A DNA stretch of 15,748 nt from a virus (IMGVR_UViG_2651869748_000011); one strand, 5' to 3'; counted from the first letter of the stretch, positions 1 through 14,148 are shown. The notes: generated by a model from the sequence alone, not told the origin. Program-made: numbers and translations.

Positions 1-246
1 TCAGTATTTCCCCGATACCTTGTGTGCAAATTGCATCAGATAGTTGATAGCCTTTTGTTTGTCGTTCTGGCTGAGTTCGTGCTTACCACAGAATACAGCC
101 ATTCCGAATCCGGCTTGTGATTGCGCCATCCCCATAGCAGCCATCACATCAGTACCGGAAAGAGAGTCAGAAGCCGTAGCCCGTGGTGAGTCGCTCATCA
201 TCGGGCTTTTTGGCGAATGAAATTTAGCTACGCTTTCGAGTCTCAT
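1..246 (-). CDS. Q: Late antiterminator Q, N-terminal fragment only (81 codons, then in-frame TGA at 1-3); likely inactivated
   Basis: The translation [44 protein letters not shown]...[10 protein letters not shown] matches my memory of the lambda Q N-terminus. Lambda Q is about 207 aa. The ATGA overlap with the upstream phosphatase stop matches lambda. The stop codon sits at the window edge. Confidence 0.8.
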
Positions 247-908
247 GCGCCTTCTCCCTGTACCTGAATCAATGTGAGGTTTCCGCAGAACACTGCGCCG
301 GTATCGATATACATCTGGTTGGCAAACTTGAGTGGTTTCACTGCTGGCGTATGACCAAAGATGAACGTGTCCGCACCTTTGATTTCTTTCACGATCCCGT
401 CTTGTGAGTTGCTGATTCGTTCGCGGTTCCAGATTACCTGCTGATGATCAACTGGTTTTCCAAACTCGTATTCGTCACAAGGATAATCGGCGTGGCAGAT
501 GACATATTTTTTATCTTTGCTCACCAGTTCGATGATTAACGGAAGTTCATCTGCTTTATGGGCAAGAGCTTTAGCCAGAATTTCTTTGTCGTAATCGAGA
601 TTAAAGAACCATCCACCGCCATTAAGCAGCCAGTGATTAACGTTTCCACGCTCTGATAAGCCATCAATCATCATTTGCTCATGGTTTCCACGTACAGCTC
701 TGAACCAGGGGAATGTGATTAATTCCAGGCATTCGACGTTCTCTGCACCACGATCAACCAAATCGCCCACCGAGATAAGCAGGTCTTTTTTGTTGTCGAA
801 TCCAATCGTATCCAGTTTGTTCATCAGGTTCGTGTAGCATCCGTGCAGATCGCCAACTACCCAAATATTTCGGTATTTGCTGCCATCAATTTTTTCGTAA
901 TAGCGCAT
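243..908 (-). CDS. ninI: Ser/Thr protein phosphatase (lambda PPase, NinI)
   Basis: From the internal Met, the sequence [25 protein letters not shown]...GDLVDRG...GNHE...GHTP carries the calcineurin-like metallophosphatase motifs (GDxHG, GDxVDRG, GNHE). It is near-identical to lambda phosphatase (221 aa). The ORF-track start at 983 is an upstream extension. Confidence 0.95.
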
Positions 909-1092
909 CTCTTTCACTCCATCCGCGATGAACCATAAGAACATCGTTGACGATGGCGTGCATTTTCCCGTCTTTATCATCAACGTATTTTCTGACCGTA
1001 CCGCGACTACATTTCAGTCTGCGTGCTACTTCTGTCTGGTTTCCGTATGCTTCAACGAGCATGTCTGGAATGGTTTTTACTGAGAACGTCAT
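886..1092 (-). CDS. ninH: NinH protein
   Basis: The 68-aa translation [37 protein letters not shown]... matches lambda NinH, which has an HTH-like segment. It sits between ninG and the phosphatase, as in lambda. Confidence 0.9.
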
Positions 1093-1700
1093 GCGGCCTC
1101 ACTTCTGCTATTTCGCAGGTCTTTGAGTTTCTGTTGGTACTCTGCCTTGATCGCCTTGCACTCTTCGACAGTCCAGCGATGGCGGCTATGGTTTGATTCG
1201 ATTTCGTCTACTGCTTCCTGCCCGATGCGGTTAATCAGTTCGACGCGATACGGAACGAGATTTCCGCTTTTGTGCTGGTTGCACACCACGCATTGCTTGT
1301 GAATATTGCGTTCATCAAATCGGAGTTGAGGTGCCGCAGCAGTTGTCCGGTAATGTCCGGCATCCCACTGAGCAGACGTGAGCGTTCCGCACGAGATACA
1401 TGGTAAGTCGCGGTCTCTTTCTCTGATGAAGGCGTTTACAGCTTGTTGGGCTTGTTTAATCCAGTAACTGCGGGGCTTTAAGGCGAGTTTTCGAATCTTC
1501 AGTTTATCTTTCTGTTTCTGCTCCTCTCGTCGTCGTTTCTTCTCTGCTGCTTTTTCCGCTTTTTCGCGTTCTTTGCTTCGTCGTTCCAGTGCTATCTTTG
1601 TTCCACACTCTGGAGAGCACCACCACTGATTAGCGAATGCAGGGTGAAACCATTCCCGACATTCTTCGTTTTTACATCGTCTTCGCGCTTGTTTAGCCAT
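1089..1700 (-). CDS. ninG: NinG / Rap recombination endonuclease
   Basis: The 203-aa translation [33 protein letters not shown]...[11 protein letters not shown]... is near-identical to lambda NinG (Rap). Its start overlaps the upstream stop (TAATG). Confidence 0.95.
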
Positions 1701-1969
1701 TATGGTTCGCTCCAGTAATTCTCAATTGCAGCAGCCATTCTCTGCATCCACTCTGCCAGCTTTAACGCGGCTTCTCTTTCAGAACCACATTTAGGGAAAT
1801 CCTTCATTTCCATGCTGGCCTTATATGTTCTGAATGCCAGGTCTCCGGTAATAACCAGCTCCTGATCAAGCACCGAGCGTTTATTCCGGTGTTGAACGTA
1901 ATAGACAGATTCAGTCCGCATTTCTTCTCTGTCTTTTTTGAAGGAAATAAGCTCAGAGAAATCACTCAT
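1700..1969 (-). CDS. Hypothetical nin-region protein (89 aa), not present in lambda
   Basis: This is an intact ORF. It is translationally coupled on both sides: its ATG overlaps the ninF stop, and its stop overlaps the ninG ATG. I recognise no family. Confidence 0.6.
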
Positions 1970-2138
1970 CGTCTTCTTCCTCGTACATTGAGCTATTCGG
2001 ATCGCTCATCAGTTCTGCGCAGCAGTGCTCACACACATGAACTTCCAGCACATGCAGCTTCTGACCGCAGTTAGCGCACGTTAAAGCCCGCTCGACGCTT
2101 TCTTTCTGGTATTGAAGAGATTGGGATGGGCTAAGCAT
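1962..2138 (-). CDS. ninF: NinF-like small zinc-ribbon protein (58 aa); below the ORF-track size cut-off
   Basis: Manual translation of the minus strand gives [58 protein letters not shown]. From ESVERALTCANCGQKLHVLEVHVCEHCCAELMSDPNSSM onward it matches lambda NinF, with CxxC...CxxC. Its start overlaps the upstream stop. Confidence 0.8.
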   Translation of the reverse strand: MLSPSQSLQYQKESVERALTCANCGQKLHVLEVHVCEHCCAELMSDPNSSMYEEEDDE

Positions 2139-2490
2139 TATTGGCGTCCTGCATCATGAGAAAGACAATCATGGCGGCGCGGAGGGAATTTTCATGTATA
2201 GCTAGCTTAGATTTACAGTCGGCCACACCACGTGCACCCCACTCGTCTTCATCGAGATTGATGATGCTAATCCTGTACTTCTCAATAATCGGCCATGAGG
2301 CGCTAGGATCATTGCAGTAGTCAGGCAAAGGGTTTAATGGCTCAAAAGTTGTATCAGCATTTCCGTAATACCATTTGTTGGTGTTATTCCCTGATGTTTC
2401 CGGTTTACATGCCCAAAGGCCTTTAAAAATTATGTCTCCTACCATTCTGTTAATTTCAAAATCACTTAACTGTGAATAATCCATTGTCAT
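2131..2490 (-). CDS. NinX-like phage protein (DUF2591-type), nin-region accessory gene
   Basis: The translation [18 protein letters not shown]...[29 protein letters not shown] resembles NinX/DUF2591 proteins of P22-like and lambdoid phages, from memory. The ATG at 2490 forms an ATGA overlap with the ninE stop. An alternative ATG lies at 2484. Confidence 0.6.
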
Positions 2491-2663
2491 TTCCTCGCAC
2501 GATGTCTTAGCCACCGGATATCCCACAGGTGAGCCGTGTAATTGAAGGTTTTTACGTCAGATTCTTTTGGGATTGGCTTGCGTTTATTTCTGGAGCGTTT
2601 CGTTGGAAGGTATTTGCAGTTTTCGCAGATGATGTCGGTGATACTTCGTCGCTGTCGTCTCAT
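2487..2663 (-). CDS. ninE: NinE protein
   Basis: The internal start gives [58 protein letters not shown] (58 aa), matching lambda NinE. It has an ATGA overlap with the methyltransferase stop. Confidence 0.85.
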
Positions 2664-3187
2664 GCCGCCCTCCTGACGCCCTGCCCGATCGCCATCAATG
2701 CCGCTTTGGATACGGTAGTAAACATCCGTCGAGGACTGATGAACGGTCGCCAAATCAGCAGCATGGAACCTTTGCTGTTTCCCTTCTTCTCCAGCCCTGT
2801 CGATGGTTCGATAAAATTAATCCGTCCATCAGTGATAATACGAACTTCGTCAACACTCTCCAGAGCCTTGCTGAACCATCCGACAGACATATCCTCTGGC
2901 ACAAGCATCACTACCGTCTGTCGCTGTTGTATGCACTGCTCAGCGGCTTTTTCCACCCACGGCCTGATATTGCTGTACGGTGGGTTATTCCAGATTGCAC
3001 CGTGGCTTACCCACTCAGAATTGAGCGCGTCGTCGGCCTCAGTTAACCAGTGAGCGCACAGAGCATTTTTGTCGCTCGCTGCCGAATCCAGCCAGAATCC
3101 AAACTCAATATCCAGTGCATCAAAAAGCCAAAGCGGCGTTTGCCAGCAGTCCTTGTCGTGTGCTGGCGTATTTGATTTGATAGTCAT
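2660..3187 (-). CDS. Phage DNA N6-adenine methyltransferase (Dam-like, phage N-6-MTase family)
   Basis: The translation [37 protein letters not shown]...NPPY contains the DPPY/NPPY catalytic motif and the CWQTP motif typical of the phage Dam family. It has an ATGA overlap with the ninB stop and occupies the lambda ninC/D position. Confidence 0.85.
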
Positions 3188-3624
3188 GCAGCCCGATCTC
3201 CCCATCTCGCTTTCCACTCCAGAGCCAGTCTCGCTTCGTCTGACCACTTAACGCCACGCTCTGTACCGAATGCCTGTATAAGCTCTAATAGCTCCGCAAA
3301 TTCGCCTACACGCATCCTGCTGGTTGACTGGCCTATTACCACAAAGCCATTCCCGGCAAGGTTAGGAACAACATCCTGCTGCTTTAATGCTGCGGTAAAC
3401 ACACACTTCCAGCTTTCTGCATCCAGCCAGCGACCATGCCATTCAACCTGACGAGAGACGTCACCTAAGCAGGCCCATAGCTTCCTATTTTGGTCTAAGC
3501 TGCGGTTGCGTTCCTGAATGGTTACTACGATTGGTTTGGTTGGGTCTGGAAGGATTTGCTGTACTGCGTGAATAGCGTTTTGCTGATGTGCTGGAGATCG
3601 AATTTCAAAGGTTAGTTTTTTCAT
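3184..3624 (-). CDS. ninB: NinB (Orf) recombination mediator
   Basis: From the internal Met, MKKLTFEIRSPAHQQNAIHAVQQILPDPTKPIVVTIQERNRSLDQNRKLWA... (146 aa) matches lambda NinB. Confidence 0.95.
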   Translation of the reverse strand: MKKLTFEIRSPAHQQNAIHAVQQILPDPTKPIVVTIQERNRSLDQNRKLWACLGDVSRQVEWHGRWLDAESWKCVFTAALKQQDVVPNLAGNGFVVIGQSTSRMRVGEFAELLELIQAFGTERGVKWSDEARLALEWKARWGDRAA

Positions 3625-3640
3625 GACTTCCCTCTCCCCC

Positions 3641-3672
3641 AAATAAAAAGGCCTGCGATTACCAGCAGGCCT
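3641..3672 (-). terminator. Intrinsic terminator tR2 between ren and ninB
   Basis: The minus strand reads AGGCCTGCtggtaatcGCAGGCCT followed by TTTTTATTT, an 8-bp GC-rich stem plus a U-tract. It has the same sequence and position as lambda tR2. Confidence 0.8.
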
Positions 3673-3697
3673 GTTATTAGCTCAGTAATGTAGATGG

Positions 3698-3988
3698 TCA
3701 TCTTTTAACTCCATATACCGCCAATACCCGTTTCATCGCGGCACTCTGGCGACACTCCTTAAAAATCAGGTTCGTGCTCATCTTTCCTTCCCGTTCTTCC
3801 CTGGTAGCAAACCGGTAATACACCGTTCGCCAGACCTTACCTTCGATAACCAGAAGACCTGCCCGTGCCATTTTAGCCGCGGCCTGATTTATGCTGGTTA
3901 CTGTTGCGCCTGTTAGCGCGGCAACGTCCGGCGCACAGAAGCTATTATGCGTCCCCAGGTAATGAATAATTGCCTCTTTGCCCGTCAT
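3698..3988 (-). CDS. ren: Ren protein (Rex exclusion escape)
   Basis: The 96-aa translation MTGKEAIIHYLGTHNSFCAPDVAALTGATVTSINQAAAKMARAGLLVIEGK... matches lambda Ren. It has an ATGA overlap with the P stop. Confidence 0.95.
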   Translation of the reverse strand: MTGKEAIIHYLGTHNSFCAPDVAALTGATVTSINQAAAKMARAGLLVIEGKVWRTVYYRFATREEREGKMSTNLIFKECRQSAAMKRVLAVYGVKR

Positions 3989-4686
3989 ACACTTGCTCCT
4001 TTCAGTCCGAACTTAGCTTTAATTTCTGCGATCTTCGCCAGAGCCTGTGCACGATTTAGAGGTCTACCGCCCATAACAGGAAGTTGTTTTACTGGTTCAG
4101 GTATCGTCTCACCACGGTTAATTCGCGCTGTCATACAGGTCAGTTCATCGGCAGCCTTGCGCCGTAATTCCGCATCAGTAAGCGCATTGGCCCGCATGTT
4201 CTGATACAGGTTGGTAACCAGCCAGTAGTGCGCGTTTGATTTCCACGGATAAGACTCCGCATCCGGATACAGGCCTCGCTTCCGGCAATACTCGTAAACC
4301 ATATCAACCAGCTCGCTGACGTTTGGCAGTCCGGCGATAACGGATGCTTCTTCCCGGCACCATGCAACAAACTGCCCGGGTGATGGCAGAAATGGTCGAT
4401 TCTGCCGACGGGCTACGCGCATTCCTGCGTTAACCTGTTCCATCGTGGTGATCCCGTTTTCCCGAAAAGCCAGAACCCACTGGCGACGGATTTCGTTCAC
4501 TTCGTTCTGGTCACGGTTAGCCAGGCTCGCCGGGAAAGTTGCCAGTAACTGGCTGAACACACCGTTGATGATCTGCGCTACCTGCTGTACCTGCGGCTTT
4601 TCGTCGTACTGTTCCGGCATGTTGTTGGCGATCCGACGCATCTGCTCACGGTCAAAGTTAACCATCTGTGCGGCGATGTTTTTCAT
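3985..4686 (-). CDS. P: Replication protein P (DnaB helicase loader)
   Basis: The 233-aa translation MKNIAAQMVNFDREQMRRIANNMPEQYDEKPQVQQVAQIINGVF... matches lambda P. Confidence 0.97.
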   Translation of the reverse strand: MKNIAAQMVNFDREQMRRIANNMPEQYDEKPQVQQVAQIINGVFSQLLATFPASLANRDQNEVNEIRRQWVLAFRENGITTMEQVNAGMRVARRQNRPFLPSPGQFVAWCREEASVIAGLPNVSELVDMVYEYCRKRGLYPDAESYPWKSNAHYWLVTNLYQNMRANALTDAELRRKAADELTCMTARINRGETIPEPVKQLPVMGGRPLNRAQALAKIAEIKAKFGLKGASV

Positions 4687-5582
4687 AGATCCACCCCGTA
4701 AATCCAGTCTGTGTTTGTCAGGTCGAGTTTTGGTTTGCTGGCTGTCACGACTGCCTGTTGCTTGTTACGGTTGATTTCGAGCTGGGTCCACTTGTCGCGG
4801 AGTTTGGCCGGACTAAGCACGTTACCGGACCAGAAGTTGTCCTGGCATGCCCAGCGGAACAGCACGCACATGTCGCGGTGGTTACGTCCGTCACGTTCAC
4901 GCATCAGGCGGATATCGTTAGCCCACCCTGCAAAATTCGGTTTTCTGGCTGATGGCGCGATGGTCTTCACCATGTCAAACATCCACTCTGCGGCGGTCAG
5001 GTCTTCTGCTGTCCCCCACTTGCTGCCGCTCTGAATTGCAGCATCCGGTTTCACCACAGAAAGATCGTTTTCTGGCTGGTCAGAGGATTCGCCAGAATTC
5101 TCTGACGAATAATCTTTTCTTTTTTCTTTTGTAATAGTGTCTTTTGTGTCCCTCTGTTTTGAGGGATAGCAATCCCCCAATTTGAGGGATGTTTTATCCC
5201 TCGTTTTAGGGGATTTTCCCTCGTTTTGAGGGATACACCATTCTGAGATGTTTTTATTTGGTCCAAACATGCCGCCTTGCTGCTTGATAATATTCATTCT
5301 GACGAGTTCTAACTTGGCTTCATTGCACCGTTTGACGGGTAACTTTGTAATCTCGCTAAGTTGAGAATCGGTGACTCTGTCCATTGGTTTATTCCACCCA
5401 TAGGTTTTACGCAGAATGGCAAGCAGCACTTTAAACTGTCGCTTGGTCAGATCTGCGCCCGAATAAGCCTCAAGCAGCATATTTGATAGTCTGGCGTAAC
5501 CATCATCGAGATCTGCCACATTACGCTCCTGTCCGGCAAAGTTACCTCTGCCGAAGTTGAGTATTTTTGCTGTATTTGTCAT
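4683..5582 (-). CDS. O: Replication initiator O
   Basis: The 299-aa translation MTNTAKILNFGRGNFAGQERNVADLDDGYARLSNMLLEAYSGADLTKRQFKVLLAILRKTYGWNKPMDR... matches lambda O. The gene contains the ori iterons. Confidence 0.97.
   Translation of the reverse strand: MTNTAKILNFGRGNFAGQERNVADLDDGYARLSNMLLEAYSGADLTKRQFKVLLAILRKTYGWNKPMDRVTDSQLSEITKLPVKRCNEAKLELVRMNIIKQQGGMFGPNKNISEWCIPQNEGKSPKTRDKTSLKLGDCYPSKQRDTKDTITKEKRKDYSSENSGESSDQPENDLSVVKPDAAIQSGSKWGTAEDLTAAEWMFDMVKTIAPSARKPNFAGWANDIRLMRERDGRNHRDMCVLFRWACQDNFWSGNVLSPAKLRDKWTQLEINRNKQQAVVTASKPKLDLTNTDWIYGVDL
5105..5234. repeat. Lambda-type replication origin inside O: four O-binding iterons (5149-5233) plus an adjacent AT-rich unwinding region (5105-5147)
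   Basis: Four internally palindromic repeats of about 18 bp are present: tccctctgttttgaggga, atcccccaatttgagggat, atccctcgttttaggggat and tccctcgttttgaggga. They are flanked by aataatcttttcttttttcttttgtaatagtgtctttt. Confidence 0.9.
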
Positions 5583-5592
5583 AATGACTCCT

Positions 5593-5669
5593 GTTGATAG
5601 ATCCAGTAATGACCTCAGAACTCCATCTGGATTTGTTCAGAACGCTCGGTTGCCGCCGGGCGTTTTTTA
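5593..5669 (+). ncRNA. oop: oop antisense RNA (overlaps the 3' end of cII)
   Basis: The sequence GTTGATAGATCCAGTAATGACCTCAGAACTCCATCTGGATTTGTTCAGAACGCTCGGTTGCCGCCGGGCGTTTTTTA matches the 77-nt lambda oop RNA with its terminator hairpin. The upstream Po elements are TTGCTG..CATAAT. Confidence 0.85.
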
Positions 5670-5908
5670 TTGGTGAGAATCGCAGCAACTTGTCGCGCCA
5701 ATCGAGCCATGTCGTCGTCAACGACCCCCCATTCAAGAACAGCAAGCAGCATTGAGAACTTTGGAATCCAGTCCCTCTTCCACCTGCTGATCTGCGACTT
5801 ATCAACGCCCACAGCTTCCGCTGTCTTCTCAGTTCCAAGCATTGCGATTTTGTTAAGCAACGCACTCTCGATTCGTAGAGCCTCGTTGCGTTTGTTTGCA
5901 CGAACCAT
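5615..5908 (-). CDS. cII: Transcriptional activator cII
   Basis: From the internal Met, MVRANKRNEALRIESALLNKIAMLGTEKTAEAVGVDKSQISRWKRDWIPKFSMLLAVLEWGVVDDDMARLARQVAAILTNKKRPAATERSEQIQMEF (97 aa) matches lambda cII. The ORF-track start at 5968 is an extension. Confidence 0.97.
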   Translation of the reverse strand: MVRANKRNEALRIESALLNKIAMLGTEKTAEAVGVDKSQISRWKRDWIPKFSMLLAVLEWGVVDDDMARLARQVAAILTNKKRPAATERSEQIQMEF

Positions 5909-5918
5909 ATGTAAGTAT
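5886..5918 (+). promoter_or_regulatory. PRE promoter with cII-binding TTGC-N6-TTGC repeat
   Basis: The sequence ttgcgtttgtttgc at 5886-5899 is followed by a -10-like aagtat. The arrangement and location over the cII start match lambda PRE. Confidence 0.7.
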
Positions 5919-5987
5919 TTCCTTAGATAACAATTGATTGAATGTATGCAAATAAATGCATACACCATAGGTGTGGTTTAATTTGAT

Positions 5988-6019
5988 GCCCTTTTTCAGG
6001 GCTGGGATGTGTAAGAGCG
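5988..6019 (-). promoter_or_regulatory. nutR (boxA CGCTCTTA plus boxB hairpin); the tR1 region follows downstream
   Basis: The minus strand reads CGCTCTTACACATCCCAGCCCTGAAAAAGGGC. boxB is GCCCTGAAAAAGGGC at 5988-6002 and boxA is at 6012-6019. The site lies between cro and cII as in lambda. Confidence 0.85.
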
Positions 6020-6027
6020 GGAATATC

Positions 6028-7383
<1,356 letters not shown>

Positions 7384-7433
7384 TCCCCACCTCAATCTCG
7401 ATAACCAAAAAACAAACTATTTTCCGTTTAAAA

Positions 7434-7507
7434 ACAATGGAGTTTGTTTTTCATGCCCCTTTTTTACAATATTTCTTGTTTACAACATACAATCTTTCTT
7501 GTAATTT
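7434..7507 (+). promoter_or_regulatory. 434 left operator (three ACAA-N6-TTGT sites at 7434-7447, 7466-7479 and 7489-7502) and the PL promoter
   Basis: The sites are acaatggagtttgt, acaatatttcttgt and acaatctttcttgt. A sigma70 promoter overlaps them: TTTACA (7479-7484), a 17-nt spacer, then TAATTT (7502-7507), reading towards N. Confidence 0.8.
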
Positions 7508-7547
7508 TAAGCCATCAGCAGGACGCACTGACCACCATTGAAGGTGA

Positions 7548-7578
7548 TGCTCTTAAAAATTAAGCCCTGAAGAAGGGC
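7548..7578 (+). promoter_or_regulatory. nutL (boxA-like TGCTCTTAA plus boxB GCCCTGAAGAAGGGC)
   Basis: The sequence tgctcttaaaaattaaGCCCTGAAGAAGGGC is as in lambda nutL, with one mismatch in boxA. It lies between PL and N. Confidence 0.85.
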
Positions 7579-7736
7579 AGCATTCAAAGCAGAAGGCTTT
7601 GGGGTGTGTGATACGAAACGAAGCATTGGCCGGAAGTGCGAATCCGGATTAGCTGCAAATGAGCCAATCGTGGGGTGTTTTCGTTCAGGACTACGACTCA
7701 CACACACCACCAAAGCTAACTGACAAGAGAATCCAG

Positions 7737-8060
7737 ATGGATGCACAAACACGCCGCCGCGAACGTCGCGCAGAGAAACAGGCTCAATGGAAAGTAGCAA
7801 ATCCCCTGTTGGTTGGGGTAAGCGCAAAACCAGTTAACCGCCCTATTCTCTCGCTGAATCGCAAACCGAAATCACGAGTAGAAAGCGCACTGAATCCGAT
7901 AGACCTTACAGTGCTGGCTGAATACCACGAACAGATTGAAAGCAACCTGCAACGTATTGAGCGCAAGAATCAGCGCACATGGTACAGCAAGCCTGGCGAA
8001 CGCGGCATAACATGCAGTGGACGCCAGAAAATTAAGGGAAAATCGATTCCTCTTACCTAG
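7737..8060 (+). CDS. N: Antitermination protein N
   Basis: From the internal Met, MDAQTRRRERRAEKQAQWKVANPLLVGVSAKPVNRPILSLNRKPKSRVESALNPIDLTVLAEYHEQIESNLQRIERKNQRTWYSKPGERGITCSGRQKIKGKSIPLT (107 aa) has the arginine-rich motif. It is about 97% identical to lambda N, from memory. Confidence 0.95.
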   Translation: MDAQTRRRERRAEKQAQWKVANPLLVGVSAKPVNRPILSLNRKPKSRVESALNPIDLTVLAEYHEQIESNLQRIERKNQRTWYSKPGERGITCSGRQKIKGKSIPLT

Positions 8061-8615
8061 TTACTTAGATATTGGCCTTGGCTTTATCTCAATATTATAT
8101 GGATCATAGCTGGCAACTAATTCAGTCCAGTAAATATCCTCAATAGGGAATAATATATGCTTCCCGTTCCATCGGGAAAAAGTTTTGTTCAACACACCAA
8201 GCTCAATCAACTCACTAATGTATGGGAATTGTTTTGATGTAACCACATACTTCCTGCCTTCATTAAGGGCTGCGCACAAAACCATAGATTGCTCTTCTGT
8301 AAGGTTTTGAATTACCGATCGCACTTTATCGTTTTGCATCTTAATGCGTTTTCTTAGCTTAAATCGCTTATATTTGGCGCTGGCAATAGCTGATAATCGA
8401 TGCACATTAATTGCTAGCGAAAATGCAAGAGCAAAGACGAAAACATGCCACACATGAGGAATACCGATTCTCTCATTAACATATTCAGGCCAGTTATCTG
8501 GGCTTAAAAGCAGAAGTCCAACCCAGATAACGATCATATACATGGTTCTCTCCAGAGGTTCATTACTGAACACTCGTCCGAGAATAACGAGTGGATCCAT
8601 TTCTATACTCATCAA
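8061..8615 (-). CDS. sieB: Superinfection exclusion protein B (SieB), membrane protein
   Basis: The 184-aa ORF runs antisense to the PL operon between N and ral, as lambda sieB does. It has two hydrophobic helices (MYMIVIWVGLLLLS, VWHVFVFALAFSLAINV). The sequence matches my memory of lambda SieB. The true start may be the second Met (8612). Confidence 0.75.
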   Translation of the reverse strand: MMSIEMDPLVILGRVFSNEPLERTMYMIVIWVGLLLLSPDNWPEYVNERIGIPHVWHVFVFALAFSLAINVHRLSAIASAKYKRFKLRKRIKMQNDKVRSVIQNLTEEQSMVLCAALNEGRKYVVTSKQFPYISELIELGVLNKTFSRWNGKHILFPIEDIYWTELVASYDPYNIEIKPRPISK

Positions 8616-8739
8616 ACTGTAGGGGTTGTAATAGTTTATCCGATTTCTCGCTGTAGGGGTACACGAGAACCACCGAGCCTGATGTGGTTAAAAGACAGGC
8701 ACAATCTTTACTACCGCAATCCACTATTTAAGGTGATAT

Positions 8740-8826
8740 ATGGAAGAAGAATTTGAAGAGTTCGAAGAGCATCCGCAGGATGTAATGGAACAGTACCAGG
8801 ACTATCCGTATGACTACGACTATTGA
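8740..8826 (+). CDS. Small acidic protein (28 aa), lambda orf28-like
   Basis: Manual translation gives MEEEFEEFEEHPQDVMEQYQDYPYDYDY*, preceded by AAGGTGA. It overlaps the ral start. It is too short for the ORF track. Confidence 0.5.
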   Translation: MEEEFEEFEEHPQDVMEQYQDYPYDYDY

Positions 8827-8989
8827 TAAGAATCAATGGTGTGGACAATTCAAGCGATGCAATGGATGCAAGCTGCAATCGGAATGCATGGTTAAGCCTG
8901 AAGAAATGTTTCCTGTAATAGAAGATGGGAAATATGTCGATAAATGGGCAATACGAACGACGGCAATGATTGCCAGAGAACTTGGTTAA
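8810..8989 (+). CDS. ral: Ral (restriction alleviation), shortened by a premature TAA (59 aa versus 66 aa)
   Basis: Manual translation gives MTTTIDKNQWCGQFKRCNGCKLQSECMVKPEEMFPVIEDGKYVDKWAIRTTAMIARELG*. After the TAA the same frame continues QNNKAA*, which is the lambda Ral C-terminus. Confidence 0.8.
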   Translation: MTTTIDKNQWCGQFKRCNGCKLQSECMVKPEEMFPVIEDGKYVDKWAIRTTAMIARELG

Positions 8990-9109
8990 CAGAACAACAA
9001 AGCTGCCTGATAGTGGCCTTTATTTTTGGCATAAATAACAGAATAAACACTGCACTGAACCGCCCCGGGAATCCTGGAGACTAAACTCCCTGAGAAAGAG
9101 GTAAACAGG

Positions 9110-9436
9110 ATGACTAAAAATACTCGTTTTTCCCCTGAAGTCCGTCAACGGGCAGCCCGTATGGTTCTGGAAAGTCAGGGCGAATATGACTCACAATGGG
9201 CGACAATTTGTTCCATTGCTCCAAAGATTGGCTGTACGCCGGAGACTCTGCGTGTCTGGGTTCGCCAGCATGAGCGGGATACCGGGGGCGGTGATGGAGG
9301 GCTCACCACCGCTGAACGTCAGCGTCTGAAAGAGCTGGAGCGTGAAAATCGTGAACTGCGCCGCAGTAACGATATCCTTCGCCAGGCTTCCGCTTATTTT
9401 GCGAAGGCGGAGTTCGACCGCCTCTGGAAAAAATAA
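9110..9436 (+). CDS. IS629-like transposase OrfA (HTH, leucine-zipper region)
   Basis: The 108-aa translation is [57 protein letters not shown]...[34 protein letters not shown]. It ends in TGG AAA AAA TAA; the A6 run is the candidate -1 frameshift site. Confidence 0.95.
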
Positions 9437-10323
9437 TGCCGCTGCTGGATAAGCTGCGTGAGCAGTACGGGGTCGGACCGCTATGCAGCGAACTGCATAT
9501 TGCCCCGTCAACGTATTACCACTGTCAGCAACAGCGACATCATCCGGATAAACGCAGTGCCCGTGCGCAGCGCGATGACTGGCTGAAGAAAGAGATACAG
9601 CGCGTATACGATGAAAATCACAAGGTATACGGTGTGCGTAAAGTCTGGCGTCAGTTGTTACGGGAAGGAATCAGAGTGGCCAGATGCACTGTGGCACGTC
9701 TCATGGCGGTTATGGGACTTGCCGGTGTTCTCCGGGGTAAAAAGGTCCGCACTACCGTCAGCCGGAAAGCCGTTGCCGCATGCGACCGCGTAAACCGTCA
9801 GTTCGTGGCAGAACGTCCAGACCAGTTGTGGGTGGCTGATTTTACCTGGGTAAGCACATGGCAGGGCTTCGTTTATGTGGCGTTCATCATTGATGTGTTC
9901 GCCGGATACATCGTGGGATGGCAGGTCTCATCATCCATGGAAACAACATTCGTGCTGGATGCACTGGAGCAGGCGTTGTGGGCCCGTCGGCCGTCCGGCA
10001 CAATCCATCACAGTGATAAAGGTTCTCAGTATGTATCGCTGGCCTACACGCAGCGGCTTAAGGAAGCCGGATTACTGGCATCAACAGGGAGTACTGGCGA
10101 CTCGTATGACAACGCGATGGCGGAGAGCATCAATGGTCTTTACAAAGCGGAGGTAATACACCGTAAGAGCTGGAAAAACCGTGCAGAAGTGGAACTGGCC
10201 ACACTCACGTGGGTGGACTGGTATAACAATCGACGATTGCTGGAAAGGCTGGGCCATACTCCCCCGGCAGAAGCAGAAAAAGCTTATTATGCTTCCATCG
10301 GAAACGATGATCTGGCAGCCTGA
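9436..10323 (+). CDS. IS629-like transposase OrfB (DDE / rve catalytic domain)
   Basis: The 295-aa ORF is in the -1 frame relative to orfA (TAATG overlap). DDE-type motifs are present: WVADFTWV, HHSDKGSQY and DNAMAESINGLYK. Confidence 0.95.
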   Translation: MPLLDKLREQYGVGPLCSELHIAPSTYYHCQQQRHHPDKRSARAQRDDWLKKEIQRVYDENHKVYGVRKVWRQLLREGIRVARCTVARLMAVMGLAGVLRGKKVRTTVSRKAVAACDRVNRQFVAERPDQLWVADFTWVSTWQGFVYVAFIIDVFAGYIVGWQVSSSMETTFVLDALEQALWARRPSGTIHHSDKGSQYVSLAYTQRLKEAGLLASTGSTGDSYDNAMAESINGLYKAEVIHRKSWKNRAEVELATLTWVDWYNNRRLLERLGHTPPAEAEKAYYASIGNDDLAA

Positions 10324-10365
10324 GTTCACAGATAAAACACTCTCCAGGAAACCCGGGGCGGTTCA

Positions 10366-10554
10366 CTGCGTGTGTGGGTTCGTCAGCATGAGCGGGATAC
10401 CGGGAGTGGTGATGGTGGACTCACCACCGCTGAACGTCAGCGTCTGAAAGAGCTGGAACGTGAAAATCGTGAACTGCGCCGCAGTAACGATATCCTTCGC
10501 CAGGCTTCCGCTTATTTTGCGAAGGCGGAGTTCGACCGCCTCTGGAAAAAATAA
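10366..10554 (+). pseudogene. Truncated orfA remnant of the second IS629-like copy
   Basis: The in-frame remnant [62 protein letters not shown] corresponds to residues 47-108 of OrfA. The native start, RBS and HTH are absent. Confidence 0.8.
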
Positions 10555-11441
10555 TGCCGCTGCTGGATAAGCTGCGTGAGCAGTACGGGGTCGGACCGGT
10601 ATGCAGTGAACTGCATATTGCCCCGTCAACGTATTACCACTGTCAGCAACAGCGACATCATCCTGATAAACGCAGTGCCCGTGCTCAGCGCGATGACTGG
10701 CTGAAGAGAGAGATACAGCGCGTATACGATGAAAATCACAAGGTATACGGTGTGCGTAAAGTCTGGCGCCAGTTGTTACGCGAAGGTATCAGGGTGGCCA
10801 GATGTACAGTGGCGCGCCTCATGGCGGTTATGGGACTTGCCGGTGTTCTCCGGGGTAAAAAGGTCCGTACTACCGTCAGCCGGAAAGCCGTTTCCGCAGG
10901 CGACCGCGTAAACCGTCAGTTCGTGGCAGAACGTCCTGACCAGCTGTGGGTGGCTGATTTTACTTACGTCAGCACATGGCAGGGCTTCGTCTATGTGGCG
11001 TTCATCATTGATGTGTTTGCCGGATGTATCGTGGGGTGGCGAGTCTCATCGTCTATGGAAACGACATTCGTGCTGGATGCACTGGAGCAGGCGTTGTGGG
11101 CCCGTCGGCCGTCCGGCACAGTCCATCACAGTGATAAAGGTTCTCAGTATGTATCACTGGCCTATACGGAGCGACTAAAAGAAGCAAAACTGCTGGCATC
11201 AACAGGGAGTACAGGTGACTCGTATGACAACGCGATGGCGGAGAGCATCAATGGTCTTTACAAAGCGGAGGTAATACACCGTAAGAGCTGGAAAAACCGT
11301 GCAGAAGTGGAACTGGCCACACTCACGTGGGTGGACTGGTATAACAATCGACGATTGCTGGGAAGGCTGGGTCATATCCCTCCGGCAGAAGCAGAAAAAG
11401 CTTATTATGCTTCCATCAGAAACGATGATCTGGCAGCCTGA
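10554..11441 (+). CDS. IS629-like transposase OrfB (second copy, intact ORF)
   Basis: The 295-aa ORF is about 96% identical to 9436-10323 and keeps the DDE motifs. It probably cannot be made as an OrfAB fusion because orfA is truncated. Confidence 0.85.
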   Translation: MPLLDKLREQYGVGPVCSELHIAPSTYYHCQQQRHHPDKRSARAQRDDWLKREIQRVYDENHKVYGVRKVWRQLLREGIRVARCTVARLMAVMGLAGVLRGKKVRTTVSRKAVSAGDRVNRQFVAERPDQLWVADFTYVSTWQGFVYVAFIIDVFAGCIVGWRVSSSMETTFVLDALEQALWARRPSGTVHHSDKGSQYVSLAYTERLKEAKLLASTGSTGDSYDNAMAESINGLYKAEVIHRKSWKNRAEVELATLTWVDWYNNRRLLGRLGHIPPAEAEKAYYASIRNDDLAA

Positions 11442-11713
11442 GTTCACAGATAAAACACTCTCCAGGAAAACCGGGGCGGTTCAAATAACATTGTGCGTAC
11501 TCCTCTTGAGAAGGTGAGAACTATCGGTATCGCAGACACAGTTATGCCTACGGGTCTCCCCGCATCGGTCATTCTCAAAAGGTTTAAAATAGGGTTAGGT
11601 TTGATCACTCTGAACGATCAATCGAAGACATTACGATTGGAACAAACGATCAATAGGTATGTGGTTATTTGCTAAGCTGCGACAACCTTTACAAAGACAC
11701 TCAGGAATGTTTC

Positions 11714-12022
11714 ATGCCCAAATTAGCTATTAGCTTATTACTTTACTTGGCCTGCTTTTATGCAGTTGGATATGGCGCTGGATATATAACAGGTGGAATA
11801 ACTTGGCACACACTGTATATGCTTGAACGTATAATTACCGTAGCCCTACTTGCATTCATTCCAGTGTTTATCTTTGCGGCTTTATTAAATGCATCCAAAA
11901 GACAAGGAATAATAAAATCACTTTCTGTCTCAGCGATTAATTTAATCCCTTCGGCTATCGCATTACTTATAGGATTTACTGACGCAGTGACCAGAAAGTT
12001 TCTTACTTATTTTCTCGGTTAA
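11714..12022 (+). CDS. Small integral membrane protein (102 aa, about 3-4 TM helices), unknown function
   Basis: The translation is MPKLAISLLLYLACFYAVGYGAGYITGGITWHTLYMLERIITVALLAFIPVFIFAALLNASKRQGIIKSLSVSAINLIPSAIALLIGF... The RBS AGGAA lies 7 nt upstream. The gene is AT-rich relative to its neighbours. It is convergent with the minus-strand operon and overlaps it by 20 nt. Confidence 0.6.
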   Translation: MPKLAISLLLYLACFYAVGYGAGYITGGITWHTLYMLERIITVALLAFIPVFIFAALLNASKRQGIIKSLSVSAINLIPSAIALLIGFTDAVTRKFLTYFLG

Positions 12023-12196: not shown

Positions 12197-12682
12197 TTAA
12201 AGTCTCCACTCACAGCGACCGACACGTAGCTCCTCAAACTCCTCTTTCGAGACGAGTTGTCCAGCCCTGTAGTGCGATACCGTGTGCTTCTTAATGAATG
12301 CCTTAGAGTCCGGCGTGATGTCGTCCGAAGATGCTACAGCGGCCTGTACGCTGGCACTGGAGGTCATAGACACAAAGGCATCCGCTACAGCTATTCCGTA
12401 CTCAAAGTCCAGCCACTCGCCAAACTTGACGGCGGACGTGGGGTCAGCAAGCCATGACGTACCGAGGCGACCCATATCAACTTTCTTTATGCGGCGGTTT
12501 TTCTGCCCCATAAGATAGCGCCCGACTTTGGTCTGAGCGAAACGCTTAACCATTGTCTTCTCGGTGTCTTCTACCTTACCAATCTGAATACCGACCCGGC
12601 GAATTTCATCCAATCGGAACAATCCGTCTTGACTGGTGAGGTCCTGACCGAAGATATGGATAGTGTATTCTTGTTGAGACAT
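12197..12682 (-). CDS. KilA-N domain-containing protein (161 aa)
   Basis: The RBS is AAGGAG, 9 nt upstream. The segment ...RLGTSWLADPTSAVKFGEWLDFEYGIAV... matches the conserved GTW(v/l)hp..a..fa.WlsPef core of the KilA-N (PF04383-like) DNA-binding domain, from memory. Confidence 0.65.
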   Translation of the reverse strand: MSQQEYTIHIFGQDLTSQDGLFRLDEIRRVGIQIGKVEDTEKTMVKRFAQTKVGRYLMGQKNRRIKKVDMGRLGTSWLADPTSAVKFGEWLDFEYGIAVADAFVSMTSSASVQAAVASSDDITPDSKAFIKKHTVSHYRAGQLVSKEEFEELRVGRCEWRL

Positions 12683-12905
12683 ATCGTTGTACTCCTTTTA
12701 TCTGCATCCTGAAGCCGCATCCTGCCGCCTACTCAAAGCCCCCAACGATAGGGAGACGGCAGGCAACAAGACGCAGATAGAATGACTTTGAGATTTGATG
12801 ATTAGTGTCGGCGGTGGCACTTATTTAAAACGAAAGGACAACAGCATATTTCCGCATGACTTGACGCATCAAGGCCAGAGGCAGAAATAAGTATTTGCTC
12901 GGTGT

Positions 12906-12928
12906 CGTTCCTAAGGTGATAGTTTAGT
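12906..12928 (-). promoter_or_regulatory. Second, degenerate T7-family phage-RNAP promoter-like sequence (predicted +1 G at 12911)
   Basis: The minus strand reads ACTAAACTATCACCTTAGGAACG. Positions -17..-5 are identical to the element at 13470-13458. The sequence differs from it at -4, -3, +3, +5 and +6. It lies between the 60-aa ORF stop and the KilA-N leader. Confidence 0.4.
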
Positions 12929-13110
12929 CAAACAGTAATGAACTTCGGAGAACTTGACTCGAAAGTGTTCAGGACTTCCAGTGAGACCCGAAGTATGGAG
13001 ATCATATTATAGCGACCATAGTTTACTTCGGACTGACAGGACTGGAGGCTGGACTTAAAGTTCTTCTTATTGGAATTGTGATAACACAATCCATAACAAG
13101 ATAAACTCAT
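12928..13110 (-). CDS. Hypothetical small protein (60 aa)
   Basis: The ATG at 13110 is preceded by TGAGGAGACC. The translation is MSLSCYGLCYHNSNKKNFKSSLQSCQSEVNYGRYNMISILRVSLEVLNTFESSSPKFITV. The stop TGA overlaps the -17 end of the second promoter-like element. I recognise no family, so coding status is uncertain. Confidence 0.35.
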   Translation of the reverse strand: MSLSCYGLCYHNSNKKNFKSSLQSCQSEVNYGRYNMISILRVSLEVLNTFESSSPKFITV

Positions 13111-13447
13111 GGTCTCCTCAAGCCTGCTGGTCAAGACTCAAAGCTCCAACCTCAGACACCACCACTGGTCTAACCTCTTTGAGTTTCCGCCTGTCCACAA
13201 ATGGATGGCAGACCTCAGCAATGATGTCTTGGTTCTTCAGTTATCCGCGCAGCGATTATCACAGAGCCAACTTAAAGTCGGATGTGGTCTTCTGCTCCCC
13301 GCCTGTCAAAAGGGAAGATAACCTACGTTAAAAGAGAATGGTCTCAGGCCAAGGTGATTTAACACTAGGCGTCTGCGGATGGTTTCCAATCGGTCCGCTA
13401 CCGGAAGCCTGAGACTATATGAATGTGTGGGTCGGTGACTTAGGGCC

Positions 13448-13470
13448 TCTCCCTATAGTGATAGTTTAGT
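13448..13470 (-). promoter_or_regulatory. T7-family single-subunit RNAP promoter-like sequence, K1F-type specificity block (predicted +1 G at 13453)
   Basis: The minus strand reads ACTAAACTATCACTATAGGGAGA. Positions -8..+6 (TCACTATAGGGAGA) are identical to the T7 consensus TAATACGACTCACTATAGGGAGA. Positions -12..-8 (ACTAT) match the K1F-type promoter, as I recall it. The element is intergenic, 18 nt after the DUF4145 stop. Confidence 0.65.
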
Positions 13471-13488
13471 CCCCCTTCCCCGTCAGCC

Positions 13489-14148
13489 CTACTCGTTAGC
13501 GGCCTGTTGCTGTTCCCTCGCTTTCCGGTCCCGGTCTTCAATGCCCTTAAGCGCCCGTTCCGGCATACTGTTAAACATGGCTTCGACTTCTTTCGGTCGA
13601 GTAATCTGCTCAGTGACAATAATGTTCAGCAGCTTAAAGAGACCATGCGCCAACTGAGGGTCGTCATCAATGTTAATTTCACCCGGATGTACCGCCTGAT
13701 TGCCAACAATACGACAGATGTCAGCAGCTCGCTGGACCAGTGGAGACAGCCCTTTAGCTACAAGGGACTTAATGTCCGTGTCGATATGCTTCCCCGGCTC
13801 ACCGAGATGGACCATCAGCTTTTGAAGACTTAAGCGCAGGAGTGCGGCAGCGCCCTTAGGTGACAGATTAATGATGCTTCTGGCTTCCATGTAGTCGGAC
13901 TTACAGTCTTCTGGCATGTCAGGATTAGGCAGCTCAACACTACCAGCCGCAGGAATCATCATATTGCCTTTATACCAATAAGCATTTTCATAGCAATGTT
14001 GACAATATGATAAGTGGAAATCAGTTTCCATATAAGTAGAATGAGGCGCAACTCCCACCATTGACCGCCAGCTTTGCTTGGAATAAACACCACAGTGCGG
14101 GCAATTAAAAGCTTTACCATCAAACACCGCCGGATAATACTCAGCCAT
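13489..14148 (-). CDS. Zinc-ribbon plus DUF4145 domain protein (219 aa), candidate phage-defence/abortive-infection cargo
   Basis: The N-terminus has CPHCG...CQHC (a zinc ribbon). The C-terminal segment [18 protein letters not shown]...[31 protein letters not shown] fits the DUF4145 signature (L..I..L...g.l....lR..GN.aaH), from memory. The start ATG overlaps the integrase stop (ATGGCTGA). Confidence 0.7.

Follow-up and report, generated by a model that had tools for sequence, protein, structure and literature searches.

At the right end of the 15,748-nucleotide viral stretch IMGVR_UViG_2651869748_000011 (hereafter the window), the minus strand carries a small integrative element, and we are concerned here with a region of this element that holds no recognisable gene and that we regard as a non-coding RNA module coupled to T7-group phage RNA polymerase. 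The region is preceded by a tyrosine integrase gene and the gene for RAZR, starts at a promoter of phage type (P1), contains a second such promoter (P2) and is followed by an operon driven by these phage promoters. Complete E. coli genomes have this DNA next to a tRNA-Gly gene (glyU), between actS/xdh and the remnant of the ETT2 secretion system, and the gene order there is integrase, DUF4145 gene, about 800-1170 nucleotides (nt) without an annotated gene, and a few hypothetical genes. The segment 13453-13111, which a first-pass annotation made from the sequence had singled out as a 343-nt leader or non-coding RNA, falls within this unannotated stretch. The integrase lies upstream of the promoters and the order is identical in all relatives. 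In the intact relative L020, the 17-nt sequence TCCCTTCGCCCGCTCCA occurs at 2302 (the 3' end of tRNA-Gly) and again at 8722, giving an island of 6.4 kb; the window's own far island end has been lost behind copies of an IS3-family insertion sequence (IS), and the tRNA lies outside the window.

The promoters connect this island to a defined group of phages. The promoter-like 22-mer GACTAAACTATCACYWTAGGRA is found twice in the window, at 13471-13450 and 12929-12908, with 0.00 occurrences expected. The exact 23-mer of P1, ACTAAACTATCACTATAGGGAGA, is present in 17 viral contigs of 39-40 kb, which are Kayfunavirus genomes (K1F-like, T7 group); in phage vB_EcoP_F it stands just upstream of the major head gene and is one of 10 such sites. 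By its sequence, P1 is thus an exact copy of a real Kayfunavirus late promoter. P2, at a distance of 542 nt, has an unusual CACCTTAGG form that also occurs at 17554 in phage vB_EcoP_F, while relatives carry CACTATAGG at this position. A third promoter, of a second type, is located about 25 nt upstream of P1 in most relatives and E. coli copies. The extra AAACCC[AT]CACTATAGGGG site of most E. coli copies is deleted in the window (13472-13488, compared with relatives). Beyond about 35 nt of promoter, a blastn search of the 851-nt non-coding region against 50,697 phage records gave no match, and no island open reading frame (ORF) matched a polymerase family in Pfam or PHROGs. On the RNA strand, neither a sigma-70-like promoter nor an intrinsic terminator was found within 12600-13560.

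The specificity of the promoters before the same RNA varies by host, with K1F-type, CCCTCAC-type, CCCACAC-type and ATGCGACTCAC-type promoters, and the T7 and K11 consensus in Klebsiella. E.g., in an island of K. pneumoniae (L038:9250-9830) an AATTAGGGCACACTATAGGGGG site, TAATACGACTCACTATAGGGAGA and AATTAGGGCACACTATAGGGAGA are stacked within at most 110 nt, and a fourth promoter type follows the RNA; we take TAATACGACTCACTATAGGGAGA to be the T7 consensus and AATTAGGGCACACTATAGGGAGA to be of K11 type. P2, which has the specificity of P1, separates the RNA from the genes in most lineages.

Between these promoters no reading frame is conserved. As the first-pass annotation had stated, the minus strand from 13453 to 13111 (343 nt) lacks any ATG, while 5.5 are expected from its composition; ATG and TAC are the only trinucleotides absent from it. 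The absence is not a trait of the family, as 17 relatives hold between 0 and 6 ATGs. A 15-codon upstream ORF (uORF) starting with GUG had also been described. It is present (AAGAGG at 13179-13174; GTG at 13165, 13162 and 13159; TGA at 13120-13118), but it is not maintained as a frame: E. coli relatives show a 3-nt indel in the GTG run and 1-2-nt indels in GAGTCTTG / GAG-CCTG / GAG--ATG, and in Shimwellia, Buttiauxella and Proteus the sequence at its position is unrelated. The start codon at 13110, with which the leader was thought to end, is no real boundary, since the 60-codon ORF that it opens is broken in most relatives. Its start reads CTG, TTG, TTA or ACT in four of them, a premature stop at codon 5, 15, 25, 29, 35 or 43 interrupts it in 10 of 17 sequences, and the frame is changed in all but one of the 17. 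RefSeq relatives have nothing annotated in the region, this ORF included, and antisense ORFs of 20 to 110 amino acids differ in frame from one relative to another. With the ORF at 13110 not conserved, the untranslated stretch runs from 13453 to 12683, interrupted by P2. A conserved protein-coding frame across homologues, which would have spoken against an RNA, was not found, and neither frame, start nor stop of any gene or small ORF in the region is shared by the homologues.

The P1 transcript begins with two multi-helix domains (Table 1), into which the stems of the earlier annotation fit well. GUCUCAGGC (13415-13407) and GCCUGAGAC (13349-13341) are exact complements and form the 9-base-pair (bp) stem that is covarying helix 1, and the nested GCGGA (13398-13394)/UCCGC (13379-13375) stem is present as covarying helix 3; covariation support for both is strong, within a multi-helix fold. 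In domain 1 the GCGGA/UCCGC hairpin carries the invariant GAUUGGAAACCA (13391-13380) and is accompanied by a second small hairpin. Helices 1-5 of this domain are 91-100% paired, with double changes in 6/10, 2/3, 5/5, 0/3 (invariant) and 2/5 pairs, respectively, and in Shimwellia and Buttiauxella its outer stem has been rebuilt from different sequence. Domain 2 is composed of UUAACGUA, helix H7 (13322-13316 with the 13245-13239 region), hairpin H8 (loop UUUUGACAGGC), the H9/H10 hairpin, the 3' arm of H7 and GAAGAA, in this order. E. coli has two "cassette" versions of domain 2, which differ at about 35 positions and compensate each other in four helices. Unpaired and invariant are GAUUGGAAACCA, UUAAC(C)GUA, the loop of H8 (UUU(G)ACAGG(G)C) and a second copy of its motif in ACAGG(G)CGGAAACUCAAAG (13195-13177). 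In one metagenome island a second, diverged copy of domain 2 (L065:3061-3165, minus strand) precedes the main one by about 560 nt.

The evidence that this fold is maintained comes from several alignments. A covariance model over 13427-13233 (R1) recovered 46 copies, 32 of them distinct, including those of Shimwellia, Buttiauxella gaviniae, Proteus cibi and two divergent metagenome lineages. Across domains 1 and 2 of this alignment, 32 of the 52 pairs have changed on both sides and 96.5% of the cells are paired, compared with 84.5% in shuffles and 36-43% when the partners are slid by 1-3 columns; none of 500 shuffles reaches the observed value on any of five measures. A 106-position covariance model of domain 2 alone (R3; 13334-13229) locates the domain at the expected position in 15-16 of 21 integrase loci, all of different species (E-values of 6.3e-17 in Proteus, 3.7e-8 in Klebsiella, 5.1e-8 in Morganella, 6.3e-8 in Enterobacteriaceae RIT691 and 5.8e-7 in Rouxiella; the matches in Edaphovirga and Kluyvera are marginal). 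Among 22 distinct sequences of domain 2, double changes affect 18 of 21 pairs, the covariation score is 0.599 against 0.234, and 87.4% of the cells are paired (63.6% when shuffled, 34-52% when slid). A MAFFT alignment of 17 sequences, folded by RNAalifold, shows compensatory changes in 25 of 116 pairs. G-U accounts for 13.8% of the paired cells and pairing falls to 82.7% on the opposite strand; because G-U pairs become A-C mismatches there, the fold is specific to the strand transcribed from the promoters. Taken at the level of sequence comparison, the compensatory changes show that the fold is kept in at least nine genera, as seen in E. coli, Citrobacter, Enterobacter, Buttiauxella, Shimwellia, Proteus, Klebsiella, Morganella and Rouxiella and that it is under selection on the transcribed strand. 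Thermodynamic stability was also considered as a line of evidence and set aside as uninformative, the z values being -0.61 (343 nt), -0.50 (opposite strand) and -3.07 (the 524 nt that reach P2).

The first-pass annotation was thus right in proposing an untranslated, structured transcript directly 3' of a genuine phage-type promoter, with strong covariation and no conserved frame, but the element is larger than it had been drawn, with a core at 13427-13229 and conserved RNA extending to about 12930. The roles that it had suggested (a regulatory or decoy RNA, an RNase III processing region, a replication or packaging signal) stay on as candidate readings. In the 3' domain the sequence is kept among close relatives and replaced in distant ones, with conservation continuing to about the same position, and a model of this domain (R2) matches only close relatives, Shimwellia and Buttiauxella. 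Its long irregular hairpin comprises about 26 bp. The second G-rich motif reads ACAGGGCGGAAACTCAAAG or GACGGGCGGAAAC in E. coli, Citrobacter, Shimwellia, Buttiauxella, Proteus and two metagenome lineages, and GCAGGGGCTAACTTAAAG in Klebsiella. In every lineage this motif 2 is followed by an AT-rich stretch that includes an inverted repeat, likewise rich in A+T.

Table 1. Features of the integrative element in the window (positions counted from the first letter of the window).
Feature	Position	Strand	Remarks
Tyrosine integrase, 535 amino acids	14141..15748	-	Pfam Phage_integrase, E 8e-19; adjoins tRNA-Gly in complete genomes
RAZR / PD-T7-4 gene	13489..14148	-	PADLOC PD-T7-4, E 1.7e-99, full length; Pfam DUF4145
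Promoter P1, Kayfunavirus (K1F-like) type	13450..13471	-	22-mer match; predicted +1 at 13453 (first G of GGGAGA)
RNA domain 1, three-way junction	13335..13427	-	closed by 9-10-bp stem 13415-13407/13349-13341; model R1, alignment A4
RNA domain 2, most widely conserved core	13229..13334	-	model R3
3' domain	13045..13245	-	long irregular hairpin (13230-13150), CUUUGAG region, AT-rich hairpin GGAUUGUG/CACAAUUCC
Second G-rich motif, GACAGGCGGAAACUCAAAG	13177..13195	-	repeats CAGG(G)CGG of H8 loop; conserved among lineages
15-codon GUG uORF	13118..13165	-	not conserved as a frame
60-codon ORF from 13110	12928..13110	-	no conserved gene; part of the non-coding RNA region
Promoter P2, specificity class of P1, CACCTTAGG variant	12908..12929	-	22-mer match; predicted +1 at 12911
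Leader 2	12683..12911	-	5' half variable; 3' half (~12790-12695) with covarying structure
First gene of phage-promoter-driven operon, 161 amino acids	12197..12682	-	no family match (Pfam, PHROGs)

The leader behind P2 has a structure of its own. The 8-bp stem ACUUAUUU/AAAUAAGU, which had been proposed as the counterpart of the stem after P1, is not supported, since its changes are non-compensatory and one arm is missing or replaced in relatives. The structure is found in the 3' half of the leader, where 11 of 22 pairs show compensatory changes (RNAalifold, eight lineages), and it stops immediately ahead of the first gene's Shine-Dalgarno sequence. This 3' half is common to many other E. coli islands (positions 691-833 of the blast query), and in the islands sharing it the first gene encodes a Rha- or KilA-N-type protein. 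According to the annotation of relatives, a Rha/Ant-like protein of 242 amino acids takes the place of the 161-residue first operon gene in other strains.

Of 5426 complete E. coli genomes, 375 (~7%) contain the region, in every case on the chromosome. Relatives of the integrase occur in 21 species of Enterobacterales, and nearly all of these 21 loci have T7-group promoters at the same place, with differing specificity. The RNA is found with or without RAZR and with or without a capsid gene; it is constantly accompanied by the integrase and by phage promoters. The integrase is the only protein that always adjoins it, and the RNA is kept while the genes downstream are exchanged. A 6,432-nt Logan contig with the capsid gene, followed up as a possible episomal copy of the island, proved to be ordinary chromosome.

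We put the probability at about 0.9 that the region is a non-coding RNA module of a small integrative island wired to T7-group phage RNA polymerase, the P1 transcript being about 520 nt long, free of conserved frames and folded over its first ~225 nt into domains at 13427-13335 and 13334-13229. As the RNA lies directly behind promoters for T7-type phage polymerases, it is probably made only upon infection by such a phage. It would be silent in uninfected cells, no sigma-70-like promoter having been found on its strand, and would be made in bulk at once when an infecting phage supplies the polymerase. The stacking of promoters for several phage polymerases before one RNA would make it the first product of the element when any such phage arrives. 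In addition, P2 and a separate structured leader precede the genes, so the P1 product is not needed as their 5' untranslated region, and this leads us to read it as a stand-alone RNA. We tentatively favour, at somewhat less than even odds, an infection-induced RNA that acts through a protein partner, either as a decoy for a phage protein or as a cofactor of an island protein. Such an RNA would work via its fold and the invariant unpaired motifs GAUUGGAAACCA, UUAACGUA and the twice-repeated CAGG(G)CGG. It would bind a putative protein of the phage-island conflict, so that a phage protein is sequestered or an island protein (e.g., the integrase) is assisted, and the outcome may be that the phage is hampered or that the island is excised, replicated or transferred.

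Several points weigh against this interpretation. Transcription from P1 is deduced from its identity to phage promoters, and the protein partner is postulated. There is no terminator between the RNA and P2 or the genes, so read-through from P1 is probable and a role in cis is possible; neither is there one between the RAZR gene and the RNA, so some host-driven read-through is possible as well. The conserved unpaired motifs fit tertiary contacts, RNase sites or formation of an RNA-DNA hybrid equally well. In the 3' domain covariation is weak, with double changes in 9 of 62 pairs and 96.0% of the cells paired compared with 94.7% when shuffled, and the 343 nt have an unremarkable minimum free energy. 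Finally, the covariance-model alignments were fitted to the structure, which inflates the percentage of paired cells, although the alignment made by MAFFT only still gives the 25 compensated pairs mentioned above.

Among the alternatives, we consider it rather unlikely, yet worth weighing, that the P1 transcript is the primer of an R-loop origin. Being folded and G-rich, it would form a persistent hybrid with the C-rich template and be extended by phage DNA polymerase in the AT-rich stretch, following the models of the T7 primary origin, ColE1 RNA II and mitochondrial priming at the light-strand promoter and conserved sequence blocks, and the helper replisome would amplify the island without a replication gene of the island. 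The T7 primary origin consists of promoters phi1.1A and phi1.1B with an AT-rich region, and T7 has promoter-associated secondary origins too. The island is similar in that tandem phage-polymerase promoters flank a non-coding segment with an AT-rich stretch, and this segment contains two conserved G-rich blocks CAGG(G)CGG. Just after motif 2 the A+T content (40-nt windows) reaches 70-88% in Klebsiella, Proteus and the metagenome lineages; RIT691, for which motif 2 was not located, has a comparable peak, and E. coli a weaker one of 60-70%. No replication protein was recognised among the island genes in Pfam or PHROGs, and the RNA is tied to the integrase/promoter core and not to the cargo. However, T7 origins need a promoter and an AT-rich region only, and neither a folded RNA of 200 nt nor any long conserved RNA structure belongs to them, whereas the island promoters are ~540 nt apart with a 225-nt covarying fold between them; the AT-rich segment is modest in the window, the G-runs are short, and replication of the island is conjectural. 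A little less probable still is a cis-acting, processed leader, the 5' part of an operon mRNA made by a fast, uncoupled phage polymerase, in which the helices would serve as RNase III/RNase E processing and stabilising elements that tune downstream expression, as in the early and late mRNAs of T7. The position of the region 5' of the operon, on the same strand and with no terminator between, agrees with it, as do the structure of leader 2 up to the Shine-Dalgarno sequence and the irregular hairpin of the 3' domain, which could qualify as a substrate of RNase III type. Structured untranslated segments are known from the transcripts of T7 polymerase, too, with RNase III sites and 5' stem-loops. 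Those sites are single irregular hairpins of about two helical turns with an internal loop, whereas both domains of the island RNA are branched, contain unpaired nucleotides that do not vary and are conserved across islands with differing helper phages. Moreover, P2 stands between the RNA and the genes, so most operon transcripts would be without the RNA, and the RNA is retained despite the exchange of what lies downstream.

Two further explanations are at odds with the way in which the region has changed. It is very improbable that it acts as a signal in DNA only (a packaging site, arm-type sites of the integrase or an origin read as double-stranded DNA), with the RNA fold being incidental. 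The compensatory changes keep pairing and not sequence, the G-U pairs indicate a strand-specific fold in the promoter sense, and nothing in the region resembles phage genome ends or phage DNA beyond the promoter; these observations outweigh its place next to the integrase gene, where attachment-site arms are common, and the fact that T7 packaging signals include a promoter. Short proteins, from the GUG uORF, the 60-codon ORF at 13110 or a 70-codon antisense ORF at 13109-13321, are the least credible explanation by far. Such ORFs do exist in the window, and the uORF and the ATG-started ORF each stand behind a purine-rich motif. In relatives they have suffered frameshifting indels, lost starts and premature stops, the antisense ORFs vary in frame and length (20 to 110 amino acids), and substitutions track base-pairing rather than codons.

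The stand-alone, phage-induced RNA has no counterpart among the known RNA families that we compared. An Rfam search, suggested by the first-pass annotation, returned no Rfam 15 family at the gathering threshold except the ALIL pseudoknots of IS3, and at E <= 10 the segment 12600-13520 had only three chance-level eukaryotic matches of 17-18 bits. In a complete Kayfunavirus genome, models R1 and R3 and an nhmmer profile detected no copy of the RNA. Like the CI RNA of P4 and the C4 RNA of P1/P7, the island would use a leader-region RNA instead of a protein in a helper-dependent mobile element. CI and C4 are ~70-80 nt long, are transcribed in the lysogen by the polymerase of the host and work by base-pairing with target sites that are repeated, whereas the island RNA is much larger, is predicted to be driven by phage polymerase and has neither a match to C4 in Rfam nor an antisense target in the phage beyond chance. 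An antisense action on the helper phage was rejected as a candidate: the best duplexes of four conserved motifs with the Kayfunavirus genome (-14.9 to -22.8 kcal/mol) lie within or near the range of shuffled genomes. In size range, branched fold, conserved loops, position beside a recombinase gene and lack of coding capacity, the RNA is reminiscent of phi29 pRNA, IS110 bridge RNA, TnpB/IscB omega RNA and retron non-coding RNA, yet it has no sequence or model similarity to any of them, and its protein binding is putative.

The setting itself is a tRNA-Gly island of the tandem T7-like promoter kind. Islands of enterobacteria with such promoters were reportedly proposed by Chen and Schneider in 2006 as satellites activated by a T7-like polymerase. 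They are said to have an integrase upstream, at least two T7-like promoters within a few hundred bases and no polymerase gene, followed by a handful of unknown phage-related genes, with short direct end repeats and a size of 4-13 kb. Two or three T7-group promoters within ~150-620 bases and end repeats of 17-24 bases are given for the class. The island of the window shares these traits: its tyrosine-recombinase integrase precedes two T7-group promoters 542 nt apart (three promoters in most relatives), no island ORF matches a polymerase family, and in L020 the 17-nt direct repeat delimits 6.4 kb. The islands of that work were reportedly described by promoters and ORFs, whereas here a covarying RNA, RAZR and an HK97-fold capsid-like protein are added. 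Apart from that paper, we found no literature on T7 satellites or on these islands, and the literature searched contained no experimentally characterised satellite of T7-group phages. Compared with the literature found, what is new is the RNA, the fact that it is paired with promoters whose specificity is interchangeable, and the gene for the capsid-like protein; the island class is an old and neglected one.

The DUF4145 gene is, by its full-length PADLOC match, RAZR/PD-T7-4, a characterised RNase of anti-T7 abortive infection with a zinc finger and a DUF4145/HEPN domain. RAZR is a HEPN RNase that aborts infection upon assembly on the T7 or T3 portal ring (PMC13017515), and its gene often overlaps an integrase gene according to an earlier study (PMC9519451). 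In the window it is located directly upstream of P1 and overlaps the integrase gene by 8 nt. The genomic neighbourhood of RAZR is not discussed in PMC13017515. Islands L028, L033 and L041 have kept the RNA and lack RAZR.

Intact islands end with genes for a coiled-coil protein of 163 amino acids and a protein of 329 amino acids (L020:6733-7224 and L020:7308-8297), both gone from the window. Profile searches of the 329-residue protein against PDB, Pfam and PHROGs gave nothing useful. Its AlphaFold model, which used a deeper alignment, reached a predicted local distance difference test (pLDDT) score of 81 and a predicted template modelling (pTM) score of 0.77 (pLDDT 35 with a shallow alignment) and matches only encapsulins and phage major capsid proteins (probability 1.0, E 1e-8 to 1e-10). 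On the basis of this model, the 329-residue protein is predicted to be HK97-fold capsid- or encapsulin-like. The coiled-coil protein of 163 residues is scaffold-like. Searches with Pfam and PHROGs recognised no portal, terminase or replication protein in the 6.4-kb island. Capsid-forming satellites of the type of capsid-forming phage-inducible chromosomal islands (cfPICIs) have their own capsid module of major capsid protein, scaffold or protease, portal, small terminase subunit and connectors, but here the HK97-fold and scaffold-like proteins come without portal and terminase. The combination of HK97-fold and scaffold-like genes with no portal, terminase or replication gene suggests either a minimal satellite of T7-group phages that encodes its own capsid or a compartment induced by phage.

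T7-group phages are strictly virulent model phages. It is a speculative and, in our view, doubtful extension that the RNA is the essential non-coding component of an uncharacterised minimal class of satellites of these phages, with an element reduced to integrase, stacked promoters for helper polymerases, RNA, scaffold and HK97 capsid protein. If true, the RNA would replace proteins of other satellites, in replication priming, in switching the integrase to excision or in a phi29 pRNA-like assembly or packaging step. Whether the island is a satellite, a defence island or both can be approached through the covariation-supported fold, which offers a handle for mutate-and-rescue experiments on the helices and for pull-down baits. 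The RNA may point to a new way, based on RNA, in which a phage is exploited or blocked; the RNA databases would gain a family with it, and it would explain ~800 nt that are unannotated in hundreds of genomes.

The remainder of the island and of the window shows some further features. Sequence identity with the intact strain breaks off at 11481, at the start of two IS3 copies and just a few codons inside the gene for the scaffold-like protein. Beyond the IS elements, positions 1-9000 of the window did not align with the 33.6-kb locus of the closest strain that served as reference. Inside the phage-promoter-driven operon, on the opposite strand (11714-12019, plus strand), a predicted membrane protein of 102 amino acids is encoded, which has no family match and is 91-99% conserved among the islands of E. 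coli, Shimwellia, Buttiauxella and Enterobacter. The two adjacent copies of the IS3 family, at 9056-11486, replace the distal part of the island and carry their ALIL frameshift pseudoknots at 9391-9507 and 10509-10625.

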